Below, piece after piece: positions 2,713 to 27,289 of a DNA stretch of 64,000 nt. How positions within the stretch are numbered: the stretch's first letter is position 1; each line of letters begins with the position of its first letter. Below the pieces are notes generated by a model. It was not told where the DNA came from. It saw nothing but the letters and a program-made list of their open reading frames with translations, and searched no databases. Location: NCBI GenBank assembly GCA_947625725.1, contig CANQPI010000007.1, positions 2,168-66,167 on the forward strand, given 5' to 3'. Both the position numbers and the translations under genes were made by a program. Origin of the DNA: an uncultured Clostridia bacterium. Its GTDB lineage: Bacteria > Bacillota > Clostridia > Christensenellales > CAG-314.

Positions 2713-3159
2713 TCAGAGCAATTGATTTATCTTGCTCTGCACAAAGTTTGCGTCGTGCGCGTTTGCACATACGATCAAAATCGTGCTTTTGTCCGCTAAT
2801 ATACCCAAAATTTCACTCAAACCGAGTTGTTCGATAGCCCCCGAAACCACCGACGCGCCATCTCCGATCGTTTTGACAACGACAAGGTTTTCCGCAGTAA
2901 CGACGGATATGACCGTTTCTCTGACAACGCTTTTGAGTTTGGCGGACAACGCGCTCATGGATTGCTTGGTGACATATTTGTATTTGTTGCCTGCCGCAAG
3001 CGTTTTGAGCAGTCCAAGTTCCTTGATGTCGCGCGAAATGGTCGCTTGCGTAACGTCAAAACCTTGACGTTTGAGTTCGGCTACAAGTTCGTCCTGCGTT
3101 TCTATATCCTTGGACGCAATGATAGCAAGGATCGCCGATTGTCTTGAAGTACGTGACAT
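2713..3159 (-). CDS. argR: Arginine repressor ArgR/AhrC
   Basis: 148-aa ORF with the N-terminal winged-helix segment QDELVAELKRQGFDVTQATISRDIKELGL. GTGAGG RBS before ATG 3159. Sits upstream of recN as in Bacillus. Confidence 0.9.
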   Translation of the reverse strand: MSRTSRQSAILAIIASKDIETQDELVAELKRQGFDVTQATISRDIKELGLLKTLAAGNKYKYVTKQSMSALSAKLKSVVRETVISVVTAENLVVVKTIGDGASVVSGAIEQLGLSEILGILADKSTILIVCANAHDANFVQSKINQLL

Positions 3160-3319: not shown

Positions 3320-5116
3320 TTACGGTCTGAGCAACGCGGATATTTTGTCGAAAAGGCTGTCGAAATCCAAACCGCACAAAGCCAATTGTTGTTCGACGGT
3401 CGCATGTCGAACATAGGTATCTTCCACGCCGAAGGAAACGACTTTGATTTTCTTGGGAGATAGATACGCCGCAACCGTTTGACCGAAACCGCCCTGCAAG
3501 ACGTTTTCTTCGAGAGTAACCACCGTTTCGCCGCGTATTCCGTCGAGATAATCTACGCACAACGGTTTGACCTGCAAAACGCACACCGCTTCCACGCCGT
3601 CGATACTTTGCGCCAGCCTCTGCGCGGTTTCGGAAAGTTTTGCGCCGACGGCGAGAATTTTTATCTTGGCGTTCTCGCAACTTTTCAAAATTTGCACCGC
3701 GCCGTCAAAGCGTCCGTCGCGACCGCTCAAATACTTGGAATATCTGATGGCTGTCGGACCGACTTCCGTCAGACTTTGCTCGATCATTTGAGAAAGTTGT
3801 TTGTAGGTCGCGGGAGTGAGTATTGTGAGATTGGGTATTTGCCCGAGATAGGACAGATCGAACAGCCCTTGGTGAGTCTGACCGTCCTCTCCCACAAACC
3901 CCGCTCTGTCCAACAAAAAGGTTACGGGCAGGTTTTGTATCGCTACGTCGTGTAAAATTTGGTCATAACTCCGTTGCAAAAAGGAGGAATATATCGCGAC
4001 AAAGGGTCTTGCGCCGCCCTTTGCCAGCCCCGCCGCAAAGGTAACGGCATGTTCCTCGGCAATTCCCACGTCGAAAAACCTGTCGGGAAAGCGTTTTTGG
4101 AAAGAGGCTAGCCCCGTAGCGCGCGCCATTGCCGCCGTGATCGCCACAACGCGGTCGTCTTGCTCGGCTATTTTGCAAAGCGTATCTCCCACCACAGCCG
4201 CGCTTTCCAACGAGTCCGTCGAACTCCCCGCGCGGGGGACAGAGTGAAAACTTTCGGGATCTTCCTCAGCGGGGGAATAGCCCTTGCCCTTTTTGGTAAC
4301 TATCTGCATGACCGTGGGCTTGACGACGTTCTTTTTGATTTTGGAAAAGTAGTAAACCAGATCCTTAACTTCGTTGCCGTCCACGATCCCTATGTATTTC
4401 AAATCGAAATTGTCAAAGTAATTGTTGCGTACAAATCTTGCTTTGGCGCGACGTTTGCACCACCGCAAAAATTTGTAGGTAGGTTTGCCCAACAGCGGTA
4501 CTTTGAGCAAAAATTTTTTCAGACGCTGTTTGTTGCGGTCGTATTTTCCCACCCGCAATTTAGACATGTTGAGCGTTGCCGAACCGACGTTGTCCCCAAT
4601 CGACATGTTGTTGTCGTTTATGACGATCAACATATTTGTATCCTTGACGTTGTTCAACGCCTCGTACACCATGCCGTTGGTCATAGATCCGTCGCCGACG
4701 ACGGCGATAACATTGTAGTTTTCGCCCAGAGCGTCGCGCGCTTTGGCTAAACCGAGCGCGGCGGAGATCGCAGTGCCCGCATGCCCCGTGTTGAAAGAGT
4801 CGTGCTCGTCCTCGCTGCAATCGGGAAAGCCGCTTATGCCGTTTTGTTGCCTTAACGAAGAAAAATTCTCACCTCGTGAGGTAAGAATTTTGTGTACGTA
4901 ACTTTGATGTCCCACATCCCACACGATCTTGTCGTTTTCATCAAATACGTAATGCAACGCGACAGTCAGTTCCACAACGCCCAGATTGCTTGCCAAATGT
5001 CCGCCGCTTTGCATAACGTCGGCGATAAGTTTGTCGCGGATTTCCGCGCAAAGTGTCGGCAACTGTTTTACCGAGAGTTTTTTGAGGTCTTCGATTGTCT
5101 TTACTTGTTCTAACAC
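3320..5116 (-). CDS. dxs: 1-deoxy-D-xylulose-5-phosphate synthase
   Basis: 598-aa ORF with DVGHQSYVHKIL and the TPP-binding GDGSMTNGM motif. GTG start one nt after the upstream stop, with an AAGGA Shine-Dalgarno. Confidence 0.95.
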   Translation of the reverse strand: MLEQVKTIEDLKKLSVKQLPTLCAEIRDKLIADVMQSGGHLASNLGVVELTVALHYVFDENDKIVWDVGHQSYVHKILTSRGENFSSLRQQNGISGFPDCSEDEHDSFNTGHAGTAISAALGLAKARDALGENYNVIAVVGDGSMTNGMVYEALNNVKDTNMLIVINDNNMSIGDNVGSATLNMSKLRVGKYDRNKQRLKKFLLKVPLLGKPTYKFLRWCKRRAKARFVRNNYFDNFDLKYIGIVDGNEVKDLVYYFSKIKKNVVKPTVMQIVTKKGKGYSPAEEDPESFHSVPRAGSSTDSLESAAVVGDTLCKIAEQDDRVVAITAAMARATGLASFQKRFPDRFFDVGIAEEHAVTFAAGLAKGGARPFVAIYSSFLQRSYDQILHDVAIQNLPVTFLLDRAGFVGEDGQTHQGLFDLSYLGQIPNLTILTPATYKQLSQMIEQSLTEVGPTAIRYSKYLSGRDGRFDGAVQILKSCENAKIKILAVGAKLSETAQRLAQSIDGVEAVCVLQVKPLCVDYLDGIRGETVVTLEENVLQGGFGQTVAAYLSPKKIKVVSFGVEDTYVRHATVEQQLALCGLDFDSLFDKISALLRP

Positions 5117-5117
5117 G

Positions 5118-5771
5118 TCATCCTTCTTTACGGAAGATACTCAATACTTTTGCAACGCCCAAGATGATTTTGTTCGCATTTTTAACAGCGACGTTTTTGC
5201 CTATCGCTTTGAAAGTGATAGTCAGCGTGGATATGACCGAATAGATCAAAACTTTGATCACGACGTTCCAGGTTTGAGAAAGGTTCACGCCCTCTATCGC
5301 CTCAACCGCCAACGCCGCGCCGCACACGCCGGATACGATTCCGCAAATATCTCCCACAATGTCGCAACAAACGGAAGAAACGATATCCTTCTTTTTTGCG
5401 AGGCGCACTGCCGTTTTGCCGCCGCGAACGCGTCTTGACGCCATGGAGTGGAAAGGTCCTATGTCGCACGCCGTAGCCGCCGTGCCGATAATATCGAACA
5501 CAACGCCGAGCAACAAGATTATCACCGTCAAAATCGTCGCAAGCCACCACTGCGAATCGGTCAACGCAAGTTCAGACCCCGTGTTGACTGCGGCAGCCAA
5601 AACCAACGTAATAAAAAAGGCTTTGAGCGGCCACAAATTGCGTTTTTTCTTCTTTTTGTCCGATTTGTCCTTTTCTTTCCTCTTGGACTCGTTTAGTTGC
5701 GCCTCTTGCGCGACTTCCTCGCTTTGATCTGTTGCCTCGTTACTTCGCGGAACGGAATCTTTGTTTTTCAT
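5118..5771 (-). CDS. oapA: OLE-associated protein A-like small membrane protein (4 predicted TM helices, Lys/Glu-rich N-terminus)
   Basis: 217-aa ORF with RBS GGAG before ATG 5771. Four hydrophobic segments: LWPLKAFFITLVLAAAV, WWLATILTVIILLLGVVFDIIG, VCCDIVGDICGIVSGVCGAALAV, VVIKVLIYSVISTLTITF. Located immediately downstream of the putative OLE RNA and upstream of dxs, the conserved position of oapA. The assignment rests on context and topology, not on a database hit. Confidence 0.65.
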   Translation of the reverse strand: MKNKDSVPRSNEATDQSEEVAQEAQLNESKRKEKDKSDKKKKKRNLWPLKAFFITLVLAAAVNTGSELALTDSQWWLATILTVIILLLGVVFDIIGTAATACDIGPFHSMASRRVRGGKTAVRLAKKKDIVSSVCCDIVGDICGIVSGVCGAALAVEAIEGVNLSQTWNVVIKVLIYSVISTLTITFKAIGKNVAVKNANKIILGVAKVLSIFRKEG

Positions 5772-5844
5772 AATTCTCCAAATATATAATGTCGGCAGAA
5801 AAAATTGTGTGAACGTTTTTTTTCCGCAAATTAAAATAAAAAAA

Positions 5845-6424
5845 GGTGGTGACTCGTCAGATAAACCTTACGGCATAGGTTCAGTAGGGTTTCCCAAGCG
5901 AAAACTTCCCGTCGCCGAAGAAGCAGTTTCCTCTTAGTTTCGCTTATGCGGCGTCACCGCTCGCATAACTGAATCGCCACTTAGTCCGTACTATAATCTC
6001 CGATAAGCCTGAATTGCAGTCTAGAAGATTTCCTTTGCAGAACTCGGCATGTTTTAGTTTCTTTTGCAGAATTCATTTCGTAAAGCATTCGCACACGGTC
6101 TTTTAGGCCAACGGACCGTGCCGTTCAGTACTCCCAAAATTCCACTCAAAACAAGCTACACTGTACACAGCTTTGTATTCACCGCATAGCAGGTTTAACC
6201 TCAGAGAGTAGTTGCTTATTTATTAGGCAACCACCCCGTAGAGTCTCCGCGATTGATGGGGATAGAGCGTATGCCATTACACCTTACCCACCAATCTTAA
6301 CTTCCAGCACCAGCCCCCGTTTGGGCAACGAAAGCAAGCACAAGAAACTTCATCGTTGTGCCCGTCGACGGTCTTTTAGGCCCGCCTTCAACATGTCAAT
6401 TTCTGACTAGAATACTGCACCACC
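5845..6424 (-). ncRNA. ole: Putative OLE (ornate, large, extremophilic) RNA, about 580 nt core; exact ends uncertain
   Basis: This is the largest ORF-free gap in the window, with no ORF of 60 aa or more on either strand between 5772 and 6357. It lies between ispA and the 4-TM protein gene inside the nusB-folD-xseAB-ispA-[ ]-dxs-recN cluster, the published context of OLE RNA. The reverse-strand sequence is helix-rich. Its termini pair (GGUGGUG 6424-6418 with CACCACC 5851-5845). Other helices include UUAUGCG..CGCAUAA, GCACGGUC..GACCGUG and GGGCA(ca)ACGA..UCGUUGCCC. GGCCUAAAAGACCGU occurs twice. No covariance model was run. Confidence 0.7.
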
Positions 6425-6465
6425 AAATTTTTATTCGATTTTCGAGCATATTACGCTCGTTTAGT

Positions 6466-6494
6466 ATTGTATCATATTTTTTGCAAAAATGCAA
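6466..6494 (-). promoter_or_regulatory. Sigma-A-type promoter candidate just upstream of the putative OLE RNA (TTGCAT-17-TACAAT)
   Basis: On the reverse strand, -35 TTGCAT is at 6494-6489 and -10 TACAAT at 6471-6466, with a 17-nt spacer. It lies between the ispA stop (6540) and the structured RNA. Confidence 0.4.
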
Positions 6495-6539
6495 ACGTTT
6501 GTTAATTATGCAGGATACAACGCTTTTTTTACTGCCGAT

Positions 6540-7349
6540 CTACTTTTGTCGAGCGATATTTTTAGCGCAAAACTCTTTGATATACTCCAAATCATAGGGC
6601 AGTCGGTCGCAAATCTTGTCGATCTCCGAATTGAGATACAAAACGTGATCAAAAAGATCCTTTTCAGAGTAGACGTCCAAGAAAGATCTCTCGCACTTTT
6701 TCGAATCGAGTATATCGTCGATTATCTGGTAACAAACGCCGAGTTTGCAACCTATTTCGTCGAACAACGCCGCTTCGTCCTCCGACGCGCCGCCCACCAA
6801 CGCGCCGCATACCAACGCCGCGCGAATGAGCGTGCCCGTTTTGGCAACGGCAAGTTCCGTTGCGTCGTCAACGTTTTTCGTTTCGGAAAACAGATCCAAC
6901 GACTGACCGTGTACCAAACCCTCGATACCGCTCATCTTGAACAAAAACGCGCATGCCGCTCTGTACGCATTGTTGGACATAGGTCCTTGGAGCGCAGTTT
7001 CGAACGCCAGATTGAGCAAAGCGTCGCCCGCAAGCACAGCCGAAGCCTCGCCGAACTGCATGTGACAGGAACGCATGCCTCTGCGCATGTCGTCGTTGTC
7101 CATACAGGGCAAATCGTCGTGTATCAACGAATACGTGTGTACAAACTCCAATGCCGCGGCAAGTATCTTTGCGTTGTTTCCGATACGTCCGCCGACGGCT
7201 TTTGCCGTGTTGAGCAAAAGCATAGGACGGAAACGCTTGCCGCCGCTGAACAGGCTGTACTCCATTGCCTGCAACACTTTATCTCTGTTTTTGGGCAGAT
7301 AGCCTCTCAAAATTTCGTCGATATAACTAGGAGTAATATTAGTTTTCAT
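6540..7349 (-). CDS. ispA: Farnesyl/geranyl diphosphate synthase (polyprenyl synthetase)
   Basis: 269-aa ORF with both Asp-rich motifs, LIHDDLPCMDNDDMRRG and YQIIDDILD. Confidence 0.9.
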   Translation of the reverse strand: MKTNITPSYIDEILRGYLPKNRDKVLQAMEYSLFSGGKRFRPMLLLNTAKAVGGRIGNNAKILAAALEFVHTYSLIHDDLPCMDNDDMRRGMRSCHMQFGEASAVLAGDALLNLAFETALQGPMSNNAYRAACAFLFKMSGIEGLVHGQSLDLFSETKNVDDATELAVAKTGTLIRAALVCGALVGGASEDEAALFDEIGCKLGVCYQIIDDILDSKKCERSFLDVYSEKDLFDHVLYLNSEIDKICDRLPYDLEYIKEFCAKNIARQK

Positions 7350-7533
7350 CCGTCAACCTCACTTTTTCTTGCAAAACGGAAAGTTTGCCCTTGCAATCGT
7401 TGAGAGCCGTCAGGCACTCGTTTGCCAAGGTAACGCTCTGTTCAAAGATTTTGAGCGCGTCTTCCAACGTTACGTCCCCTTCTATTTTGTCCGCAAGTTC
7501 GTCCAACTTGTCGATTTTTTGTTCCAAAGTCAT
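7339..7533 (-). CDS. xseB: Exodeoxyribonuclease VII small subunit
   Basis: Track ORF 7339..7566 trimmed to MTLEQKIDKLDELADKIEGD.. (ATG 7533, AAGGAG RBS). Directly follows xseA. Small helical protein typical of XseB. Confidence 0.85.
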   Translation of the reverse strand: MTLEQKIDKLDELADKIEGDVTLEDALKIFEQSVTLANECLTALNDCKGKLSVLQEKVRLTDEN

Positions 7534-8705
7534 TGTTTTTTCTCCTTTTGAGTTACTCGCGCGCAAAATTTTCCGTCCGATAAAGTTACGGTGACGCTGT
7601 CGCCTACATCTATTTGACGGACGGACTTTACCGCGCCTTTCGGACCGTGTACATAGCCGTATCCTCGTTGCAACACGTTGGTCGGGTTGATGGAACGCAG
7701 TTTTTCCGTCACTTTTTCCAACTTCGAAGAAAGTTTTTCCGACAACGAAACGGTTGCGTTTTCCACTCGGACAAGATCCGACTTGACGGCGTTTTGCATT
7801 TCGTCAAGTTTGCGACCTACGCCGAAGTACAACAATCGGCAACTGTTCAACACTCGCTGTCGGCGACTTTCGAGCAACGAAACTACTCCGCCGTTTATTC
7901 TTTCCAAACACATGGCGACGCGCATTTTTTCCCTTTCGCAATCCAACGTGACAAATTCCGCCGCTTCGCTGGGAGTAACGGCTCGCTTGTCGGCGGCAAA
8001 ATCGGACAAAGTAAAATCGATACCGTGCCCCACCGCGGAAACGATCGGCTTGGAACATGCGGCGATTGCCCGAACGACTATCTCCGAATTGAACGCGGAC
8101 AGATCTTCGTTGGATCCGCCGCCCCGTCCCACTATCACCGCGTCCACGTCGGACTTGTCAAAGTAGGCGATACCTTGGGCTATCTCCTTGTCTGCGCCCA
8201 CGCCTTGCACCTTGACGGGATACAAAATTATATCCGAAAAAGGTTGTCTGCGTAACGCCACATTGGTAATATCGTGTATCACCGCGCCCGTTTCGCTGGT
8301 TACGACGCCGATCTTGGACGCGCTGTGAGGAACGGGCTTTTTGCGCTGTTCGTCAAACAGTCCCTCTTTGCCGAGTTTTTGTTTCAACTCCACAAAGCGC
8401 AAGTAAGCCGCGCCCGTGTCCGTCGTAGCGGCAAGACGTCTAACAAAAAAGGACACGCTGCCCGACTTGGCAAAATAGTTCAACTCGCCCTCGGCAACAG
8501 CCACCATACCGATAACGGGTTCGGACGAGTTGGCATAGCAAAAACAGTTTACCGCCGCGTCGTTGTCTTTGAGAGTAAAATACCACCCGTTGTAGGAGCG
8601 TTTGACATTGGTGATCTCGCCGCATACCGACAAGTCGCTCAAAACGGCGTCCATGTCGAAAATGCCCTTTACGTAATTATTCAGTTGAGTTACGCTTATC
8701 GTCAT
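7530..8705 (-). CDS. xseA: Exodeoxyribonuclease VII large subunit
   Basis: 391-aa ORF with an N-terminal OB-fold region and the VGRGGGSNEDL motif. ATGA overlap with the folD stop. Confidence 0.9.
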   Translation of the reverse strand: MTISVTQLNNYVKGIFDMDAVLSDLSVCGEITNVKRSYNGWYFTLKDNDAAVNCFCYANSSEPVIGMVAVAEGELNYFAKSGSVSFFVRRLAATTDTGAAYLRFVELKQKLGKEGLFDEQRKKPVPHSASKIGVVTSETGAVIHDITNVALRRQPFSDIILYPVKVQGVGADKEIAQGIAYFDKSDVDAVIVGRGGGSNEDLSAFNSEIVVRAIAACSKPIVSAVGHGIDFTLSDFAADKRAVTPSEAAEFVTLDCEREKMRVAMCLERINGGVVSLLESRRQRVLNSCRLLYFGVGRKLDEMQNAVKSDLVRVENATVSLSEKLSSKLEKVTEKLRSINPTNVLQRGYGYVHGPKGAVKSVRQIDVGDSVTVTLSDGKFCARVTQKEKKQ

Positions 8706-9505
8706 TTGGCAAGTTTGTAAAGATTTTCAAACAAAACGGCTCGCGTTACGGGTCCGACGCCTCCCGGAACGGGAGAAATCGCGCGGCATTTTTCGTACGC
8801 GTCGGAAGAAACGTCGCCGTGCGTTTTTCCGTTGACAAAACTCAATCCCACGTCCACGACTACCGTTTTGTCCGTTACAAATTCGTCGGTTATCAAATCG
8901 GGAACGCCGCATGCCGATACCAAAATATCCGCAGTGCGACAAACGGCGGGCAAATTTACCGTTTTGGTGTGACATACCGTAACGGTGGCGTCGGCAGATA
9001 GCATTATGTGAATGAGAGGCTTGCCGACGGCGTTGCCGCGCCCCACGATCACAACGTGTTTTCCCGACAGTCCCACGCCGTAGTGATCCAACAATTCTTT
9101 TACCGCCGAAGGCGTTGCGGGACAAACTTTGGCTTGTCCCTCGTACATACTTGCAACGGACAGCGGATTGCAACAGTCAAGATCTTTGTTGACGTCCGCA
9201 AATCGGTAAGCCGCACTGAATTCGCGCGGCAAGGGTTGCTGTATCAAAATGCCGTCTATTCGACTGTCTTTGGCGGCGGTATCGACTAGTTCGCAAAATT
9301 CTTGCGGAAGCACGTCGTCGGATACGGTGCGATTTTGACAATTCACGCCGATTTTTTGCGCGCTTTTGGTCAAAGAGGAAGTATATTGCGTCCACTTGGG
9401 CTCGTCAAAACCCAACGTAAACAATGTCGCGCCCGCCACTCGTTGAGAGATCTTGGCGTAAATCGCGTCCGCGCAAGGCTTTCCCGCAAGTAAAAGCGCG
9501 CTCAT
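8702..9505 (-). CDS. folD: Bifunctional methylenetetrahydrofolate dehydrogenase/cyclohydrolase
   Basis: 267-aa ORF with VVIVGRGNAVGKP and PVPGGVGPVT motifs. Gene order nusB-folD-xseA. Confidence 0.9.
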   Translation of the reverse strand: MSALLLAGKPCADAIYAKISQRVAGATLFTLGFDEPKWTQYTSSLTKSAQKIGVNCQNRTVSDDVLPQEFCELVDTAAKDSRIDGILIQQPLPREFSAAYRFADVNKDLDCCNPLSVASMYEGQAKVCPATPSAVKELLDHYGVGLSGKHVVIVGRGNAVGKPLIHIMLSADATVTVCHTKTVNLPAVCRTADILVSACGVPDLITDEFVTDKTVVVDVGLSFVNGKTHGDVSSDAYEKCRAISPVPGGVGPVTRAVLFENLYKLAK

Positions 9506-9891
9506 TGTCTGCTCCCGTTATAAGCGGCTAGTATCCCGTTTACGTAGGAAACGCTTTTTTCCGTGGAATATTTTTTCGCAAAAGAAACGGCTTCGTTTAT
9601 TATCACGGGGACGGGAGTATCGAGGTTGTTCATTTCCCAAATCGCCATTTCGATTGCGGCAAGATCCGGTCTGTAAATACGCGACAGTTTGAAGGAACGC
9701 GAAAATTCGCCGACGACGGAATCCAATTGCGATTTTTGCTCGATCACGCCGTTGACAAGCGCGTTGGCGAATTGAATATCCTGTTCGTCCAACATTTTTT
9801 GATCGAACTGCGAATAGTCGCCGTCGAAACGACCGCTGATCAAGTAAGCGTATATTTTGCAAAATGCAACTTCTCTTGCGTAACTTCTCAT
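9502..9891 (-). CDS. nusB: Transcription antitermination factor NusB
   Basis: Track ORF 9502..9945 trimmed to MRSYAREVAFCKIYAYL.. (ATG 9891, GGAG upstream). NusB-like length and sequence. Sits upstream of folD. Confidence 0.85.
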   Translation of the reverse strand: MRSYAREVAFCKIYAYLISGRFDGDYSQFDQKMLDEQDIQFANALVNGVIEQKSQLDSVVGEFSRSFKLSRIYRPDLAAIEMAIWEMNNLDTPVPVIINEAVSFAKKYSTEKSVSYVNGILAAYNGSRQ

Positions 9892-9956
9892 ACACGTAAC
9901 TCCGTCTGTTTGTTCACAAAACGCGCAAAACCCTTTGTTTGCCAAAGGGTTGCGAG

Positions 9957-10286
9957 TTAATTTTCTTCAAATTCAACTTCGATCACATGAACGTTGACGT
10001 CCTTGACCTTGAACTCCGTCATGCTTTCTATGGTGTTTTTGACGGTGCTTTGAATGTTGCTTGCGACGTCGCTCACTTCCACGTTGTAGGCGAGTTTGAC
10101 GTAAACGTCAACATACACCTCGTCGTCAACGTATTCCACCTTGATCGAATCTCTCGACTGCTTGGAATTGGCGGGATATTTCACCACGCCGTCCACTTCG
10201 TTCAGCGCGCAGTCCACAATGTCGCGGATAATTTCGCTGCTGTACACAAGTCTGCCGGATTCGTCAAATCTGTTTACTACTTTCAT
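9957..10286 (-). CDS. Asp23/Gls24 family envelope stress protein (YqhY-like)
   Basis: 109-aa ORF with ..VYSSEIIRDIVDCALNEVDGVV.. typical of the Asp23 family. Same position as yqhY, upstream of nusB, in Bacillus. Confidence 0.85.
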   Translation of the reverse strand: MKVVNRFDESGRLVYSSEIIRDIVDCALNEVDGVVKYPANSKQSRDSIKVEYVDDEVYVDVYVKLAYNVEVSDVASNIQSTVKNTIESMTEFKVKDVNVHVIEVEFEEN

Positions 10287-10390: not shown

Positions 10391-10867
10391 TTATACTGAG
10401 AGTATTCCCACGTATTCGGGTTCGATAGCCGTTTCGGTCGCGATGATATTGTAAATGCGAATGGTATCGTCCAGCGTAAGTTCGTCCTTGTCCACGATCA
10501 CGCTCACGTTGTCCATGTTGGTGTTGACGGTGACAAGCACGTCTTCGAAGCCTTGCGCTTTGAGCAACGTTTCCAACAGCATTTCCGTATCCATGGCGTT
10601 TACGATTTTTTGCTTTTGCGCAAGGGCGTTTTGTCTTGCCTCGGCATATTCGTCGCCTTCCATGTTGAGTATCTCGTTCAATTCGGCAATTTCGTAGTCG
10701 CGAGTGGTCTGTCTGTTCAAACGGGACGTTGAGAAAAAGCCGGTCTGCACGGTACTGCCCTGCGCCTCACTCTTGTTGTCCGTCAACAAGACAACGTTAA
10801 GAACGGCTGCCACCACCAATACGGCTACCATCGAAACGATCAGTGCGATTTTCTTTCCTTTTGACAT
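10391..10867 (-). CDS. spoIIIAH: Stage III sporulation protein AH
   Basis: 158-aa ORF with an N-terminal TM segment, then FFSTSRLNRQTTRD.. and ..ETLLKAQGFEDVLV.. typical of SpoIIIAH. Last gene of an AA-AH operon. GGGAGG RBS. Confidence 0.8.
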   Translation of the reverse strand: MSKGKKIALIVSMVAVLVVAAVLNVVLLTDNKSEAQGSTVQTGFFSTSRLNRQTTRDYEIAELNEILNMEGDEYAEARQNALAQKQKIVNAMDTEMLLETLLKAQGFEDVLVTVNTNMDNVSVIVDKDELTLDDTIRIYNIIATETAIEPEYVGILSV

Positions 10868-10879
10868 ATTCGGTCCTCC

Positions 10880-11371
10880 CTAACTTTTATATGTAAACAC
10901 CTGTACGTCCTGCGAGGAAACGTCCAGAAGCGTTACAACGACATTGACTATTTTGAATTTTACCACGGGGTCGTCTGCGCCTTCGGCTACGACCACCACT
11001 CCGAGGATCTTGGGCGGAAGCGTTTTGGTGACGAGCGGCTCGCCTTTCATAGAAACGACGCTGCTCGTTTGTTTTGTCACTCCGCCCGAGGTTGTAGTTT
11101 CCGTTTCGTAGGCGTACACCTTTTCCCCGTCGCTTTCGTAGGAGATCGCGACGCGAACCTTTCCGCAGCCGTCGATTTTTTCTACTACGCTACAAATTTT
11201 ATGCTCCATTTGGGCGATATATGATTCGTCTGCGGTGTTTTTTTCGGTTTGTTTTGCATTGTTGCCTACAAACACCGCCACGATCACCGCCAAAGCGAGC
11301 GTCAAAGCAATATACAGTTCGATATTTTTTACCGTTTTCAGTTTTTTGAAAAAGTTTTTTATTTTTTCCAT
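10880..11371 (-). CDS. spoIIIAG: Stage III sporulation protein AG
   Basis: Track ORF 10880..11497 trimmed to MEKIKNFFKKLKT.. (ATG 11371, after the spoIIIAF stop). TM segment plus the C-terminal ..PPKILGVVVVAEGADDPVVK.. motif. Confidence 0.8.
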   Translation of the reverse strand: MEKIKNFFKKLKTVKNIELYIALTLALAVIVAVFVGNNAKQTEKNTADESYIAQMEHKICSVVEKIDGCGKVRVAISYESDGEKVYAYETETTTSGGVTKQTSSVVSMKGEPLVTKTLPPKILGVVVVAEGADDPVVKFKIVNVVVTLLDVSSQDVQVFTYKS

Positions 11372-11379
11372 ATCGACAC

Positions 11380-11802
11380 CTACGTCCATACAATACTCAG
11401 TTCGTACCGAGAAAAATGACTTGCCATGACCGATTTGACGGTATTTTCTTTCGAACTTTCCTTTCGACTCAACGTGAGAGCGATTTTGCCGTCGCAAACC
11501 CGAACTTCGACGGGCGAAACGCCGTTGCTCAAAAGCAACGTTTGAACGGATCTTGCGACTTCCGCGTTTTGTCTGTCCTCAACGTTAGCGAGATATTGTT
11601 GTTGCACTTCCGTTTCCGTTTCGGTATTCCACAAATCGAAATCGCCGTCCAACAGCCCGACGATCGGCTGCACTATGACCAACGTGACGACAATGCCAAA
11701 GACGGTCCTGACGTATTTGCGCGTTTGCCCCTCGGGCAAAATTACGTCGCACAAAACGGAAAGAATTGCTATCCCCGCCACAGTAACGACCCATTGTCCC
11801 AT
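11380..11802 (-). CDS. spoIIIAF: Stage III sporulation protein AF
   Basis: 140-aa ORF with two N-terminal TM segments. Position between spoIIIAE and spoIIIAG. Confidence 0.75.
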   Translation of the reverse strand: MGQWVVTVAGIAILSVLCDVILPEGQTRKYVRTVFGIVVTLVIVQPIVGLLDGDFDLWNTETETEVQQQYLANVEDRQNAEVARSVQTLLLSNGVSPVEVRVCDGKIALTLSRKESSKENTVKSVMASHFSRYELSIVWT

Positions 11803-11803
11803 A

Positions 11804-12943
11804 CTACACTCCGTTTACCGTACAAATGGCGATCAACGTCAGAATACTGAACATAAATGCGACCGCTAGTATCAACACTGCCAAAAAAGTGAGCGTTTTG
11901 CTCATTCCGCCGAGTATTTTGACGTATTTTTCGTTTGCAACGGGTTCCGCCAACGCCGAAACGGCTTGCAGACCCAAATTAAGACAAAGCACGCTTACGA
12001 GAGGCTTGACTATCGCAAACAACAACGCCAACAACGTTACCGCTCCAAAGGCGTTTTTTATCAACGAGGTGCTGGCGGCTACCATGTCGAAACCGTCCGC
12101 GAGATACCCGCCCAAAATGGGAATGTAACTTTTTGTCGCAAATTTTGCCGCGCGAAAAGATACCCCGTCGATCGTGGCGGCGGATATACCCTGCACCGTC
12201 GTTACCGCGGAAAACAGCATAAACAACACGCCCAAAATCCACCCCGAGGCGTTTGTAAAAAATTCGGACGCCTTTGTTACGCGCACATTGGAAGAAATGT
12301 TGCTCACCACGGCAAATACCAGAGCGAAAATAGACAAAGGCAACACAACGGAGCGCACGATCTGAATTATCCCCGTGGAAAACATCACCATTGACGGCTG
12401 GCACACCGAGGACGTTACGTTAGCGCCGTTGGCGACAAGCAACGTCAACAAAATCGGCGACGCCGCCTCGCTCAACGCCGAAACTTTGTTGAGCAAGTCA
12501 AAGACCTGCCTGTAAACGTTTACGACCATGGCAAGCACCGCGCCGATAACGACCGTTGCGCCCACAAAGGAAACAACGCTGTCGGTGCTTTCCGAAATGA
12601 GTCCGCCGTTTGTTTTGCGGAGCAATCCGAGAATTACCATAACGGCAAAAACAGCAACGAGTTGAGGCGTCAGGTCTTTTATCCCCTCTCCGAAAAGTGA
12701 TACGATAACTTGCCAAAAACTCTCGGCGGAGTCGAATTCGCCGTTGATTATGCTGCGCACCTTGCTTGCCACGCCGTCGAAAAAGCCCTTCGACGCATCC
12801 TCCATATCGGAAAAATCTATGTTGCCCAGCCCTTGGTTTACGTTGTTTTCCAACTCCTCCATCAGGTCGGTTTCGGCATGCGCAACCGCGGGTATCAACA
12901 ACGTCGCCAGCAAAACGGCAATTATCAGCAAACGCAATTTCAT
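11804..12943 (-). CDS. spoIIIAE: Stage III sporulation protein AE (polytopic membrane protein)
   Basis: Track ORF 11804..13198 trimmed to MKLRLLIIAVLLATLLIPAVAHAETD.. (ATG 12943, ATGA overlap with the spoIIIAD stop). The upstream 85 codons are Arg-rich and overlap spoIIIAD. Confidence 0.9.
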   Translation of the reverse strand: MKLRLLIIAVLLATLLIPAVAHAETDLMEELENNVNQGLGNIDFSDMEDASKGFFDGVASKVRSIINGEFDSAESFWQVIVSLFGEGIKDLTPQLVAVFAVMVILGLLRKTNGGLISESTDSVVSFVGATVVIGAVLAMVVNVYRQVFDLLNKVSALSEAASPILLTLLVANGANVTSSVCQPSMVMFSTGIIQIVRSVVLPLSIFALVFAVVSNISSNVRVTKASEFFTNASGWILGVLFMLFSAVTTVQGISAATIDGVSFRAAKFATKSYIPILGGYLADGFDMVAASTSLIKNAFGAVTLLALLFAIVKPLVSVLCLNLGLQAVSALAEPVANEKYVKILGGMSKTLTFLAVLILAVAFMFSILTLIAICTVNGV

Positions 12944-13326
12944 AGCACCAAACCAAATATCAAGCGGAAAAGTTTTTCGACAAGGGGCAACGCGCAGAAC
13001 AAAATGGCGACCTTGGAGGCAAGCAAAACCTTGTCGCCTATGCTCTTGCAGTTGGCGTCTATGCAAAGGTTGTTGCCGAATTCCGCAAGATAACCGATAC
13101 CCACCACTTTGATAACGCAACCTATCGCTTCGCCGTCTATCCCCGACTGTTCCGCAAAGTTGTAGAAAACGTACACAACGTCGTAGAGCGCGTCGCAAAC
13201 GGCAAGCAACAACACTACCGAAACGCCCACAGTGAGAGGCAACGCAAACTCCGGTTTCAGTTGGCGAATTAGCGCAATCCCCGCCACGGCGACAAGCGCG
13301 AGCAAGACGATCTTGTAGAAATCCAT
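12940..13326 (-). CDS. spoIIIAD: Stage III sporulation protein AD
   Basis: 128-aa hydrophobic ORF at the expected position in the operon. Confidence 0.85.
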   Translation of the reverse strand: MDFYKIVLLALVAVAGIALIRQLKPEFALPLTVGVSVVLLLAVCDALYDVVYVFYNFAEQSGIDGEAIGCVIKVVGIGYLAEFGNNLCIDANCKSIGDKVLLASKVAILFCALPLVEKLFRLIFGLVL

Positions 13327-13328
13327 AA

Positions 13329-13523
13329 CTACAAACCGAACAAGGAGCGCACAGTGTCGTAGAGTTGAACGATAACGTCCAACATCATGACCAAAGCGAC
13401 GACAAGCCCCACGACGGATACTACGGTAGCGATCTCATCTCTGCCTGAACGTTTGAGCAACATCGAAGCGATTGCGGTTATTATGCCGATTGCGGCGATT
13501 TTCAAAATTACGGAGATTTCCAT
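13329..13523 (-). CDS. spoIIIAC: Stage III sporulation protein AC
   Basis: 64-aa two-TM ORF (MEISVILKIAAIGIITAIASMLLKRSGRDEIA..) typical of SpoIIIAC. Confidence 0.85.
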   Translation of the reverse strand: MEISVILKIAAIGIITAIASMLLKRSGRDEIATVVSVVGLVVALVMMLDVIVQLYDTVRSLFGL

Positions 13524-13533
13524 ATCACCCCTG

Positions 13534-13980
13534 TCAAATGAGCAAAATTCCCACCGAAACGCCCAACAAAATACCCAACTTGGGATATATCGCGGCTTTT
13601 GTCGATTTGTCCGAACATTCCTTTGCCTGCGCGGAAAATATCGCCTTGTAGTACGCTATGTGATTTGCCAATTCTCTGCTTCCCAGTGCGCCGAGATTGG
13701 CAAAAAATTCCTCCATAGATCTCTTTTGCGAAGGGACAAGTTTTACCCGAAGTTTGTTTTGCAACAAATATTCGCCGAAACTTTCGCCGCAACTTTCGGC
13801 AAAACGCTCGTTGAAAAGAGGCAACGCGGTTTGTTTCGACTCCACGTTTAGCGCAAGCAACTCCGCGTATTTGGTGAGATCGGAGTAAAAGGACGTCAAC
13901 ATTCGGGCGCGACGTTCCAAGTACTTTCCTATCGCAAAACCGCACAGCGAACATGCTATCAGTATTACTATGTCTAACAT
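13534..13980 (-). CDS. spoIIIAB: Stage III sporulation protein AB
   Basis: 148-aa ORF with an N-terminal TM segment, at the expected position in the operon. Confidence 0.75.
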   Translation of the reverse strand: MLDIVILIACSLCGFAIGKYLERRARMLTSFYSDLTKYAELLALNVESKQTALPLFNERFAESCGESFGEYLLQNKLRVKLVPSQKRSMEEFFANLGALGSRELANHIAYYKAIFSAQAKECSDKSTKAAIYPKLGILLGVSVGILLI

Positions 13981-13996
13981 ATTATTCTACAAAACG
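13961..13996. repeat. Copy D of the recurrent quasi-palindromic element, embedded at the spoIIIAA stop / spoIIIAB start junction
   Basis: Plus strand reads AGTATTACTATGTCTAACATATTATTCTACAAAACG. 24/29 identical to copy C. An ungapped 50-nt alignment (13961-14010 vs 51883-51932) gives 35/50 identity to copy B. Confidence 0.4.
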
Positions 13997-14839
13997 ATAT
14001 TTTTCGTCATTGTCAAGTGCCTTTTTACAGAAAATCTTGGGTTTGTCGCCAATTTGACTCAAAACAACAAACGTCGCGAACTCTTTGAATCGCCCGATTT
14101 TTTGTTCGAAATCTTCAATATTTTTTCCGTGCAGACTGCAAGCCAAGTTTACGCCGCTGTTCAGACAGTACCTCACTGCGTCGGCGTCATCCGAACAGAG
14201 TTCGTCGCACACAATCCATTGGGGCGACATTGCCCTCACCGCTACGTCGAACGCGTAGGATTTGCTTGCCCATTTGAGGACGTCGCAGTCGGAATTGTCC
14301 GAAACATTGCCGTCGAAGAACAGTTCGCCGCGCTCGTCCGCCACCAAAACATTGTAGCGCCGCGACAGTTTTGTCGATAGATCTCTCAAAAAAGTCGTCT
14401 TGCCGCTGCAAGGAGGACCTATTACGGCTACGCTACCTCGGCAAACAATGTCGAACGTTTTTTCATCTACTACGCGCAAATTGTGCGGGATACGAAAACA
14501 CAGAGAGGAGTAACTTTGAAACACGGGTTCTTTTGCGCCCGCAACCGCGCCGCACACCCCCACTCGCACTCCGTCGTCCATGGTAAAAAAGCCGCTTGCC
14601 AACATTTTTTCGTAAGTGTAAACGGAATTGAAACAAGCGCGGCGGACTATTTGGTCGCAAGATTCTTTGAGAACAATACCGCCGCCGTTTTGACTCAGGC
14701 AGTTTGTTCCCACAAAGTACCAAGTTCCCGCAACGTTCACGCGGACGGGACGGTTGTTTCGAATACGAATTTCCCTCACATCCGTCAGTCCGCGCAGTTT
14801 GTCCGATATTTCCGACGGCAAACAGTCCCACGCTTTCAT
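13982..14839 (-). CDS. spoIIIAA: Stage III sporulation protein AA (ATPase)
   Basis: Track ORF 13982..14959 (TTG start) trimmed to MKAWDCLPSEISDKLRGL.. (ATG 14839). Walker A GPPCSGKTTFLRD. The start choice is uncertain because no strong SD is present. Confidence 0.85.
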   Translation of the reverse strand: MKAWDCLPSEISDKLRGLTDVREIRIRNNRPVRVNVAGTWYFVGTNCLSQNGGGIVLKESCDQIVRRACFNSVYTYEKMLASGFFTMDDGVRVGVCGAVAGAKEPVFQSYSSLCFRIPHNLRVVDEKTFDIVCRGSVAVIGPPCSGKTTFLRDLSTKLSRRYNVLVADERGELFFDGNVSDNSDCDVLKWASKSYAFDVAVRAMSPQWIVCDELCSDDADAVRYCLNSGVNLACSLHGKNIEDFEQKIGRFKEFATFVVLSQIGDKPKIFCKKALDNDEKYRFVE

Positions 14840-14864
14840 ACCATAGATTATTGGACAAGCCTCG

Positions 14865-14894
14865 AATTTATGCAAAGTAAATATTGGACTATGA
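14865..14894 (-). promoter_or_regulatory. Weak candidate mother-cell (sigma-E-like) promoter for spoIIIA
   Basis: Reverse strand reads TCATAGT-N15-CATAAATT, about 25 nt upstream of ATG 14839. It loosely resembles the Bacillus sigma-E consensus (ATA..CATACAnT). Match made by eye only. Confidence 0.2.
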
Positions 14895-15233
14895 GTCGCG
14901 ACGTCGCTAAACGACTGTTGCAAACTCTTGAATAAAAAAGGCCGTCGCACTTTCCGCAACGGTTTTACTTGTAAAGAATTCTATTTTTCTGTTCCCAAGC
15001 GGATAAAAGTATCACAACAGTTCGGTCGCACGGTCAGAGTTCGTTGATACGATCATGTCGTTTTTCAGCGATATAACAACAAAATCCAACTAAATTCGCA
15101 GATTCCCTTGGGGCAACATTCCCTCAATAGTTGGCGTAACCTCAAAATACGCCGCTAATGTATGTATTTACAATTTTTACAATCTACAACTTTTTTTGGG
15201 AATTTCACTTGAAAGTATAATTCACCACAATAC

Positions 15234-25648: not shown

Positions 25649-27289
25649 TTACTTGGATTTCGAGTTCAAAAAAGCAATACATTTGGCAACGGCAAGCGCG
25701 GTATCGCGGCATAACACGGTGCTGTTGTACGAAACTTTGCATTTTTTTGTCAAGTCTTCGAGTCGGGCGACGTTTACGCTTGTCGAACTCAACGCGCTTC
25801 CGTTCCAAAGCGCGTCCAACAACTCGTTTTGCGCGACGGTTTTGTTGGCAAAGCGGTAATTCATCGGAGCAGCATAGTAGTTTAGCAGATCCAACGTCTG
25901 AGTCAAATCGTTGCCGACCAATTCAAATCCGTACAAAAATTTGTACAGGTCGGAAATTATTTCCGTCAGCGTCGGATAGAATATAAGTTTGTTTTGAGCA
26001 AGTCCGCACGCTTTGAGCGCATGCTCGTCGATCTCTTTTTCGGGGTTTACGTAACCGAACAGCCTTTGAGTGACATGTCCGCGTTCGACTTTTACGGCGC
26101 AAATTGCATAGAGTTTGTCCTCTATCACTTTGCCGAAACCCGTCGAGTTGACGTGCAACACCGCCAACTTTCTGTCGGCGACGAGGGGACTTTCGGAATC
26201 GAAGTCCACAAAATTTATCTGCCTGTATTCCGTGCAATCTTCGGGCTGTATCAAAATATAATCGTCGGCGACTTTGCGGTTGAATTGCGCCGAGGGCGAA
26301 ACGGGATCTATTTTGCATCTGCACAGGTCGTAAACGCGCATTTCCAACTGACCGTTCAGATCGTACGCCACCTTTCCCCTCACGACGACGGAAGAATTGT
26401 CGGCGAGCCAGGTAATTTCTTTCAACTTTTTGTCGTTTGCCAAAATGCGCTTTTGCGAGAGCGTCTTTGCTTCCGCCTCGCCGCGCCCCGTTTCGCTCAT
26501 GATGGTTTGGACGTCGGTAATTTGCATGTTGACAAATACCACGCAGGAGATGGTTGCGCCGCTTGCGTCCGTCAAAGCGAACTTGCATAAGTACAACAAC
26601 GGGTTATTTTTGGCTTGACGGCAGGTTTTGCCTGAAACCGTTCCGCAAATTACGCAACTATCCGCGGGATTGCGCAGATCCGAAATGTACATAGGGTCGG
26701 AGGAAATGACTTTTCCGATCAGCGGGTCGCAACCGCTTACGTGAAAAAATCTCGACGGTTTGAGCAATTCCTTGTTAATTGCAAGTTGAACGAGTTTTTC
26801 CTGCTCGGTCAGATCGGACGACGAGCCGCTTTCGTCGGTGACGAAAGAAAAATCTATCGCGTAACTTGTGTAATCTTTGTAGTGATCGTTCAAAATTTCG
26901 GCGAACTCGACGTTTTCCAGATTTTTTTCGGTGACGGCGTCCACATTGATTTTGACGTCGATATGTCGTCCGTCTATTTTCACGTTGATCTTGTTTTTGT
27001 TTACGTTTACGAAAACGGGAAAGCGCGTTTTGATAAATTCCGTAAGATTGCGGGTAAAACTTACTTGACTGAACACATCTTCGACAATGCGCAACGAATA
27101 AAAGTACCCTTTGGGCAACAGCGAAGAAACGATTTCCTCTATACGCGAGCGGACGGATCGATCGAGGGAAGTCGCGTCGGGGTAAGAAAGCGTGCAAAAC
27201 ACCGTGCGTTGCTGTTTGTCCACACGGATCTCCCTGATACGCATATCGGCAAGTTGCGGTATTTGCTTGTGAATTTCGTCAATTATCAT
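25649..27289 (-). CDS. PolC N-terminal-region homologue: N-terminal domain + OB fold + degenerate DnaQ-like exonuclease domain; no PHP or polymerase core
   Basis: 546-aa ORF occupying the polC slot (ispG/rseP upstream, rimP downstream). Residues about 205-325 match the PolC OB fold (..VICGTVSG..FALTDASGATISCVVF..VVVRGKVAYDLNGQLEMRVYDL). Residues about 373-546 align with the PolC exonuclease, but its motifs are altered: LAVLHVNSTGFG (D-x-E becomes H-x-N), ELVGNDLTQTLD and VLCRDTALAVAKC. The call as a real CDS is strong. The functional label is inference. Confidence 0.6.
   Translation of the reverse strand: MIIDEIHKQIPQLADMRIREIRVDKQQRTVFCTLSYPDATSLDRSVRSRIEEIVSSLLPKGYFYSLRIVEDVFSQVSFTRNLTEFIKTRFPVFVNVNKNKINVKIDGRHIDVKINVDAVTEKNLENVEFAEILNDHYKDYTSYAIDFSFVTDESGSSSDLTEQEKLVQLAINKELLKPSRFFHVSGCDPLIGKVISSDPMYISDLRNPADSCVICGTVSGKTCRQAKNNPLLYLCKFALTDASGATISCVVFVNMQITDVQTIMSETGRGEAEAKTLSQKRILANDKKLKEITWLADNSSVVVRGKVAYDLNGQLEMRVYDLCRCKIDPVSPSAQFNRKVADDYILIQPEDCTEYRQINFVDFDSESPLVADRKLAVLHVNSTGFGKVIEDKLYAICAVKVERGHVTQRLFGYVNPEKEIDEHALKACGLAQNKLIFYPTLTEIISDLYKFLYGFELVGNDLTQTLDLLNYYAAPMNYRFANKTVAQNELLDALWNGSALSSTSVNVARLEDLTKKCKVSYNSTVLCRDTALAVAKCIAFLNSKSK

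Follow-up and report, generated by a model that had tools for sequence, protein, structure and literature searches.

We analyzed a 64 kb stretch of DNA from an uncultured Clostridia bacterium (hereafter the window), in which the gene for an OLE RNA (ole) stands directly upstream of oapA, the gene for the membrane protein that partners this RNA. Both are read on the - strand, as is the gene cluster around them. Positions 5830-6439 hold a canonical full-length OLE RNA and positions 5118-5771 encode OapA, set in the conserved gene cluster of an uncultured gut Clostridia bacterium; we regard this identification as nearly certain. The elements of the locus are listed here from the promoter to the end of oapA, with lengths in nucleotides (nt) and amino acids (aa).

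6466-6494, - strand: putative ole promoter of the sigma-70 type, with TTGCAT (6494-6489), a 17-nt spacer and the extended -10 element TGaTACAAT (6474-6466)
6443-6459, - strand: 5' leader hairpin CGAGCG-UAAUA-UGCUCG, between the predicted start site and helix P1, outside the Rfam model
6419-6424, - strand: 5' strand of the closing helix P1, GGUGGU, which pairs with ACCACC at 5850-5845
6367-6386, - strand: P2 hairpin GGCGGG-CCUAAAAG-ACCGUC, placed by the Rfam alignment; helix 2, 91.8% paired
6296-6355, - strand: P5 region with J4a/5 (CGAUGAAG, 6355-6348) and J5/6 (AGUUAAG, 6302-6296), matching the Rfam consensus
5946-5966, - strand: P13 hairpin AUGCG-A-GCG-GUGA-CGC-CGCAU, with a GNRA tetraloop and a 1-nt bulge; predicted OapB site
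5904-5924, - strand: P14.1 hairpin with a GCGA tetraloop; helix 22, 91.7% paired
5838-5850, - strand: 3' strand of P1, ACCACC, followed by seven U (U7, 5844-5838); possible fold-dependent terminator or attenuator
5772-6539, - strand: noncoding gap that contains the RNA
5118-5771, - strand: oapA, encoding a membrane protein of 217 aa, with the ribosome-binding site GGAG at 5779-5776
5349-5363, - strand: codons of the DxxxD motif of OapA, D137-I-V-G-D141

An Rfam scan of the whole window recovered a single match: OLE (RF01071) at 5830-6439 on the - strand, 610 nt long, with a score of 439 bits (the gathering score of the family is 50 bits) and an E value of 1.3e-125. The match is untruncated and runs over model positions 1-616 of 616. 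We mapped 152 of the 159 pairs of the model onto the window RNA, and 137 of these 152 are canonical, with the mismatches clustering in the variable central helices (P7-P9). The fold energy of the 610-nt RNA is -194.2 kcal/mol, compared with -173.1 +/- 4.8 in shuffled sequences (z = -4.45; none of 20 shuffles was as good), and the two ends of the RNA are paired in the minimum-energy fold. An earlier reading of the letters alone (the original prediction) had proposed an OLE RNA at this place and had described many helices, including one that joins the ends. The covariance model and the fold energy bear out both proposals, and the end pairing recurs in the homologues described below.

Using the OapA protein as a query, we fetched 80 loci from species-representative genomes. 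Rfam recovered OLE in all 11 related loci tested, at 437-539 bits and 10-190 nt upstream of the oapA homologue, and in essentially all loci that extend far enough upstream, an nhmmer profile places OLE before the oapA homologue. We aligned 71 full-length OLE copies (the window and 70 others), projected the Rfam structure onto them and added the P1 pairing, which gave 22 helices with 158 pairs. As controls, pairing partners were slid by 1-3 columns, and 500 shuffles were made. Standard pairs occupy 88.9% of cells, compared with 42-47% with slid partners. Double-sided (compensatory) changes occur in 113 of the 158 pairs; cells with such changes number 1974, against 312-575 in the slid controls, and not one of the 500 shuffles reaches the observed covariation values. 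The pairing of GGUGGU (6424-6419) with ACCACC (5850-5845) in P1 is kept in 99.8% of cells; covariation is seen in three of the six pairs, with U-A changing to C-G and G-C to A-U. At the level of single nucleotides, 150 of the 610 never vary and 198 reach at least 97% conservation, in agreement with the published family figure, in which about 25% of nucleotide identities are more than 97% conserved (PMC12265935). Wherever the 70 other OLE RNAs are at least 95% conserved, the window RNA has the conserved nucleotide.

The nearest species-representative genomes are metagenome-assembled genomes (MAGs) of uncultured Clostridia from the rabbit gut ('Lapin' bins), in which OapA is 75-81% and OLE 88-92% identical to the window copies. 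The host had been called possibly uncultured, and these closest relatives agree with that. More distant relatives are labelled Christensenellaceae, Oscillospiraceae, Candidatus Fimimonas and Candidatus Limihabitans. The comparison also bears on the idea that the window carries a decaying, nonfunctional relic of OLE, for which one could cite the 15 of 152 mapped pairs that are noncanonical, concentrated in the central P7-P9 helices. However, the mispairs fall in helices that vary throughout the family (helices 8 and 11-14 are paired in 31-81% of cells across all 71 sequences), conserved positions show no deviation, oapA is intact with all invariant residues kept, and the higher identity of OLE (88-92%) than of OapA to the sister species is consistent with purifying selection. 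We therefore consider decay exceedingly improbable.

Several of the MAGs that carry OLE and oapA bear unexpected names in the NCBI taxonomy. Three are filed under Myxococcota as Candidatus Fimimonas, Myxococcaceae (L030, L038 and L040), two more under the same phylum as 'Corallococcus sp.' (L028 and L042), and one as 'Muribaculaceae' in Bacteroidota (L067). These names look like mislabels, and mislabelling could explain part of the 24 'non-Bacillota' OLE hits that have been reported (PMC11332333).

Three types of OLE RNA have been described: the full-length type; variant 1, which has shortened P7-P9 helices, often loses the OapB site and is typical of TANB77; and variant 2, which is without P7-P8 and is typical of RF39 (PMC11332333). 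We assign the window RNA to the full-length type rather than to reduced variants 1 or 2, because the model is covered continuously, the OapB site appears intact and the nucleotides of the kink-turn (k-turn) match the consensus. A reduced RNA that works with OapA alone, without OapB and OapC, as in the TANB77 and RF39 gut symbionts, would suit a host from an uncultured gut Clostridia MAG lineage and a 64-kb window in which oapB and oapC were not found. It would also suit a score of 439 bits, below the 539 bits of a Clostridium OLE, and the small departures of the window RNA from the consensus, namely a hairpin at model positions 424-436 that is reduced to a few nt and a stem in the P9 region that is shorter and mispaired. 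However, the 610 nt of the window RNA cover model positions 1-616 and include the central helices, and the GNRA loop and bulge of P13 and the k-turn nucleotides are intact, whereas the published variants have a shortened P7-P9 or no P7-P8 and have often lost the OapB site (PMC11332333). Truly split matches look different: in L067 (5463-5917) and L077 (5526-5964), upstream of the OapA homologue, the match to the OLE profile is broken into two parts, which skip profile positions ~180-358 and leave out ~180 central nt, a pattern that fits the published variant 2. A reduced type in the window is thus very unlikely.

The full-length assignment is mirrored in the individual protein-binding sites. 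Nucleotides of J4a/5 and J5/6 around P5 rearrange into the k-turn to which OapC binds (PMC9723947); most of these nucleotides are invariant in the 71-copy alignment, and the window RNA matches the consensus by sequence, which makes the region a candidate OapC site. OapB binds P13, where it needs the GNRA loop and the single-nucleotide bulge, and P14.1 is a weak second OapB site (PMC7936274). In our alignment P13 corresponds to helices 19-20, which are 92-95% paired and in which all pairs covary. The P2 region is reported to hold one of two palindromes bound by OapA, in the account that PMC12265935 gives of Block et al. 2011.

An exact 15-nt direct repeat, GGCCTAAAAGACCGT, occurs within ole at 6382-6368 and 6109-6095 on the - strand (OLE nt 58-72 and 331-345). 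One copy takes up the loop and 3' arm of P2, and the other sits at the tip of the long variable hairpin of the P9 region. The repeat is particular to the window species: the other 70 aligned OLE RNAs hold no internal repeat longer than 12 nt. P2 belongs to one of the two mapped OapA-binding regions, so the copy at the P9 tip may be another P2-like site; it may also be due to chance.

The protein encoded by oapA has four hydrophobic segments by hydropathy (~47-70, 77-100, 136-160 and 173-196), and an AlphaFold2 (AF2) model has four long helices at similar places (47-71, 75-104, 131-160 and 166-197), at low predicted local confidence (pLDDT). DxxxD, described as a distinctive feature of OapA (PMC11332333), does not vary among 18 close homologues or among 15 distant homologues of 32-40% identity, and the motifs GVxFDxxGTA and TxxxKAxxKxxA are likewise invariant. 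The Pfam model of the CNNM/DUF21 domain (PF01595) matches residues 80-214 with 25.4 bits, below its cut-off of 28.4 (E 1.2e-5), and Pfam finds neither CBS nor CorC domains in the protein. The window protein thus appears related to CNNM/DUF21 without being a member as the family is curated, which parallels the published description of OapA as a distant CNNM relative that scores below MpfA and has four rather than three transmembrane (TM) helices (PMC11332333). Four TM segments, the invariant DxxxD motif, the sub-threshold CNNM match and the presence of OLE directly upstream in homologous loci together support the earlier naming of this 217-aa protein as OapA.

Lysine and arginine are concentrated in the N-terminal tail (KKKKKRN just before TM1), in the loop at 101-135 and at the C-terminus. 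By the positive-inside rule, the N-terminus would face the cytoplasm together with all basic segments. The tail (residues 1-46) is acidic and then lysine-rich (...KEKDKSDKKKKKRN) up to the start of TM1. The clade as a whole conserves its beginning, MKN.DSVP, and the lysine run, and the tail is absent or different in Clostridium OapA, to which tblastn matches begin at residue 26-46. It may serve as an extra segment that contacts RNA or membrane. In a large protein database we found 1561 OapA homologues, including the exact sequence from NCBI, ENA and Logan assemblies; the loci of the exact protein lie on short ENA/Logan contigs and have the same gene order. No names were retrieved for the exact protein and five of its relatives.

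The genes around ole and oapA were identified with Pfam, with NCBIfam/TIGR models and from their translations.

1-880, - strand: spoIVB, cut by the window edge
981-2696, - strand: recN
2713-3159, - strand: argR, directly after dxs and two genes downstream of oapA
3320-5116, - strand: dxs (TIGR00204, 597 bits; Pfam DXP_synthase_N), with a GTG start at 5116
6540-7349, - strand: ispA, farnesyl diphosphate synthase (Pfam polyprenyl_synt, E 1e-43), the upstream neighbour
7339-7566, - strand: xseB
7530-8705, - strand: xseA
8702-9505, - strand: folD
9502-9945, - strand: nusB
9957-10286, - strand: Asp23-family gene
10391-14959, - strand: spoIIIA operon

The order nusB-folD-xseA-xseB-ispA-[ole-oapA]-dxs-argR-recN-spoIVB is the classical arrangement. 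The cluster named in the original prediction, nusB-folD-xseAB-ispA-[ole-oapA]-dxs-recN, is present as claimed, with argR as an addition between dxs and recN; ArgR is an unpublished candidate for an OLE-binding partner (PMC12265935). Also as predicted, the four-TM gene is followed at once by dxs: the TGA stop of oapA (5120-5118) lies 1 nt from the GTG start of dxs (5116). Because of this 1-nt distance, oapA and dxs are probably co-transcribed and translationally coupled. The stretch upstream of oapA had been described as free of open reading frames (ORFs) of 60 aa or more, and no such ORF lies wholly inside the gap, which runs from the ispA stop (6540) to the oapA start (5771). Its edges are overlapped by ORFs on the + strand: at the upstream edge a 79-aa ORF with a GTG start (6358-6597) and a 304-aa ORF antisense to ispA (6489-7403), and at the downstream edge a 58-aa ORF (5761-5937). 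The product of ispA is short past the second Asp-rich motif, and both Asp-rich motifs are present in the translation.

The sporulation genes in the window (spoIVB and spoIIIAA, AB, AC/AD, AE, AF and AH) support the view that the host is a spore former, as had been predicted, or at least a keeper of sporulation genes, and its gut origin points to an anaerobic life.

Two observations concern the annotation of other parts of the window. The 304-aa ORF at 6489-7403 on the + strand exceeds ispA itself (269 aa), so that calling the longest ORF picks the wrong strand there; the same happens at further places, for example at nusA/rimP, tsf/pyrH/frr and rplS. Between ispG and rimP, a position that in Firmicutes is usually occupied by a polC gene of ~1400 aa, lies an ORF of 546 aa (25649-27289, - strand) with no Pfam match. 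Its residues 378-472 have weak similarity to DnaQ/PolC-type exonuclease domains (E 0.003). Because the first exonuclease motif appears replaced (LAVLHVNSTG), the ORF may encode an inactive exonuclease-like protein.

The promoter proposed earlier for ole, TTGCAT-17-TACAAT, is present with its -10 hexamer TACAAT at 6471-6466 and an extended -10 TG, and our promoter scan lists it as TTTGCA-18-TACAAT with TG. The hexamers are kept in close relatives: across 12 aligned related loci, TTGCA of the -35 and TG-n-TA of the -10 show little or no variation, whereas the DNA from the ispA stop to the promoter diverges among the same loci. Between the predicted start site and P1, the stem of the leader hairpin is kept in place with other sequences in most close relatives (L005-L020), for example as GAGUG..ACUC, GAGCA..GCUC and CGGGU..ACCCG. 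Since the stem is kept while its sequence changes, the leader hairpin covaries, and it may be a 5' stabilising hairpin. Clostridium OLE loci appear to be without it, because their TATAAT stands only ~14 nt before the GGUGGUG of P1.

At the other end of the RNA, at least 6 U within the 8 nt after P1 are found in 40 of the 71 OLE loci, including every close relative of the window, and are absent in more distant ones. A simple scan for hairpin terminators came up empty downstream of OLE on the - strand; such a scan is blind to the U7 tract, because the stem of P1 is long-range. The start of oapA lies 58 nt past the end of the OLE model, and the spacer between them varies in length (~25-190 nt) and has no conserved promoter in relatives, so oapA is probably expressed by read-through. 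A weak promoter-like site in this spacer (5813-5786) was rejected, as the spacer is unconserved and only ~25 nt long in locus L015. Read-through from ispA could also reach ole, because the scan found no terminator on the - strand between the two.

Taken together, these features suggest one unit of promoter, leader, OLE, partial stop, oapA and dxs. In this arrangement ole would be transcribed from its own conserved extended -10 promoter (6494-6466), and its transcript would open with a small protective hairpin. It would then either stop at the U7 tract directly 3' of P1 or pass it, and read-through past U7 would carry oapA and the abutting dxs. Because P1 forms only once the whole RNA of ~600 nt has been made, the closed OLE fold could act as a terminator or attenuator. 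We also considered a stronger combination, in which ole is a self-contained transcription unit whose closed fold works as a long-range intrinsic terminator or attenuator and in which, separately, the repeat at the P9 tip is an extra docking site for OapA; we judge it distinctly unlikely. If the fold-dependent attenuator were true, it would set the ratio of OLE to oapA-dxs and couple the expression of the isoprenoid pathway to RNA folding.

The same layout can be read differently, with the region being merely a structured leader or spacer that acts in cis within the oapA-dxs operon and yields no discrete trans-acting RNA. Such a reading draws on the short distance of 58 nt from the OLE model end to oapA with no conserved promoter between, on the abutment of dxs and oapA, and on the cluster of Halalkalibacterium halodurans, which is transcribed as one polycistronic RNA (PMC12265935). 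Against this, 25-32% of the nucleotides vary little or not at all between lineages in which OapA is only 32-40% identical, and ~20 helices covary. The ole gene has its own conserved promoter and a 3' U tract, and the family is known from experiments as an abundant, protein-bound and membrane-localised RNA (PMC12265935, PMC7936274, PMC9723947). We find a mere cis-acting spacer highly improbable.

Some results weigh against this account of the identity, expression and function of the locus. As a bare pattern the promoter match is not significant, with 4 sites found where 2.1 +/- 1.4 are expected. No curated family model exists for OapA: NCBIfam gave no match and the Pfam match is sub-threshold. 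A sequence search of the PDB with OapA recovered no relative, and the AF2 model of the OapA monomer (18-sequence alignment) has a pLDDT of 55.9 and a predicted TM-score (pTM) of 0.39, too uncertain for comparison with a CNNM-like fold. Within the 64-kb window, oapB, oapC and rpsU were not found in a Pfam search of most predicted genes and 73 leftover ORFs. The L7Ae, KOW/DUF2187-type and S21 families had no match among the Pfam-scanned ORFs of the window, and there was no candidate among the genes identified by eye. Absence of these three genes from 64 kb is usual and to be expected, and says nothing on the rest of the genome.

What is known of the function comes from H. halodurans. There the OLE RNA (~600 nt) folds into two domains and dimerises, OapA dimers bring it to the membrane, and it is shaped by OapB and OapC, both of which it needs; the RNA also contacts bS21 (PMC12265935). 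Cells that lose OLE become sensitive to cold, to short-chain alcohols, to excess Mg2+ and to poor carbon sources (PMC12265935). An anticorrelation exists between OLE and MpfA, a Mg2+ transporter with the CNNM domain that is most closely related to OapA, and a published structural overlay sets OapA on CorB 7M1U (PMC11332333). OapA would be the core of a CNNM/MpfA-like transporter of divalent cations (Mg2+), and the OLE RNA would do the regulating and sensing that in the all-protein MpfA/CorB relatives falls to the CBS and CorC domains. We consider this the most likely mechanism and hold it with moderate confidence. A different proposal is that OLE RNA is a ribozyme that catalyses a membrane reaction rather than the regulatory scaffold of a transporter. 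Its size, complexity and conservation are typical of large ribozymes, as the argument of Fernando and Breaker is outlined in PMC11332333 and PMC12265935. However, in almost 20 years neither a substrate nor a reaction has come to light, the MpfA anticorrelation and the relationship of OapA to CNNM point to ion homeostasis (PMC12265935, PMC11332333), and nothing in the window bears on catalysis. We think a ribozyme rather unlikely.

OLE is among the largest conserved bacterial RNAs whose biochemical job is unsettled, which gives each locus some comparative use. The present locus is an ordinary member of a well-catalogued class: the standard Rfam model recovers this copy at full score, the genes around it are the usual ones, it shows no differences at conserved positions, and the exact OapA sequence is already public. 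The original prediction was right that the class is known and that this is not a new system; a published survey counts 2,822 OLE hits in Bacillota genomes (PMC11332333). The value of the copy is that it adds one more sequence to the alignment and indicates that gut Clostridia MAGs can hold the full-length type with the predicted OapB and OapC sites intact. It also offers a modest lead on how OLE may be transcribed and terminated in this clade. The leader hairpin, the U tract and the 15-nt repeat are minor leads.

Comparison with known systems places the locus as follows. With the full-length type of OLE (RF01071; H. halodurans) the window RNA shares a length of ~610 nt, all conserved nucleotides, ~20 covarying helices, the closing pairing of the ends, the GNRA loop and bulge of P13, the k-turn nucleotides at P5 and the position between ispA and oapA-dxs. 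It differs in that its clade has a conserved promoter of its own ~47 nt before P1, with a 5' leader hairpin added, while the window RNA has U7 directly after P1, the reduced 424-436 hairpin and the shorter P9-region stem; the 15-nt internal repeat belongs to the window species alone. The protein resembles known OapA in its ~220 aa, four TM helices, DxxxD motif, weak CNNM similarity and place directly downstream of ole, and differs by its N-terminal tail of ~45 residues, acidic and then lysine-rich (KKKKKRN), whose conservation is confined to this clade. With MpfA/CorB/CNNM proteins (PF01595) OapA shares a distantly related transmembrane domain (E 1.2e-5 over residues 80-214), but it has no CBS pair, no CorC domain and no conserved CNNM proline, has four rather than three TM helices, and carries DxxxD. 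Like OLE variants 1 (TANB77) and 2 (RF39), the window RNA comes from uncultured gut Bacillota known only from MAGs; unlike them, it retains the central helices and the OapB site.

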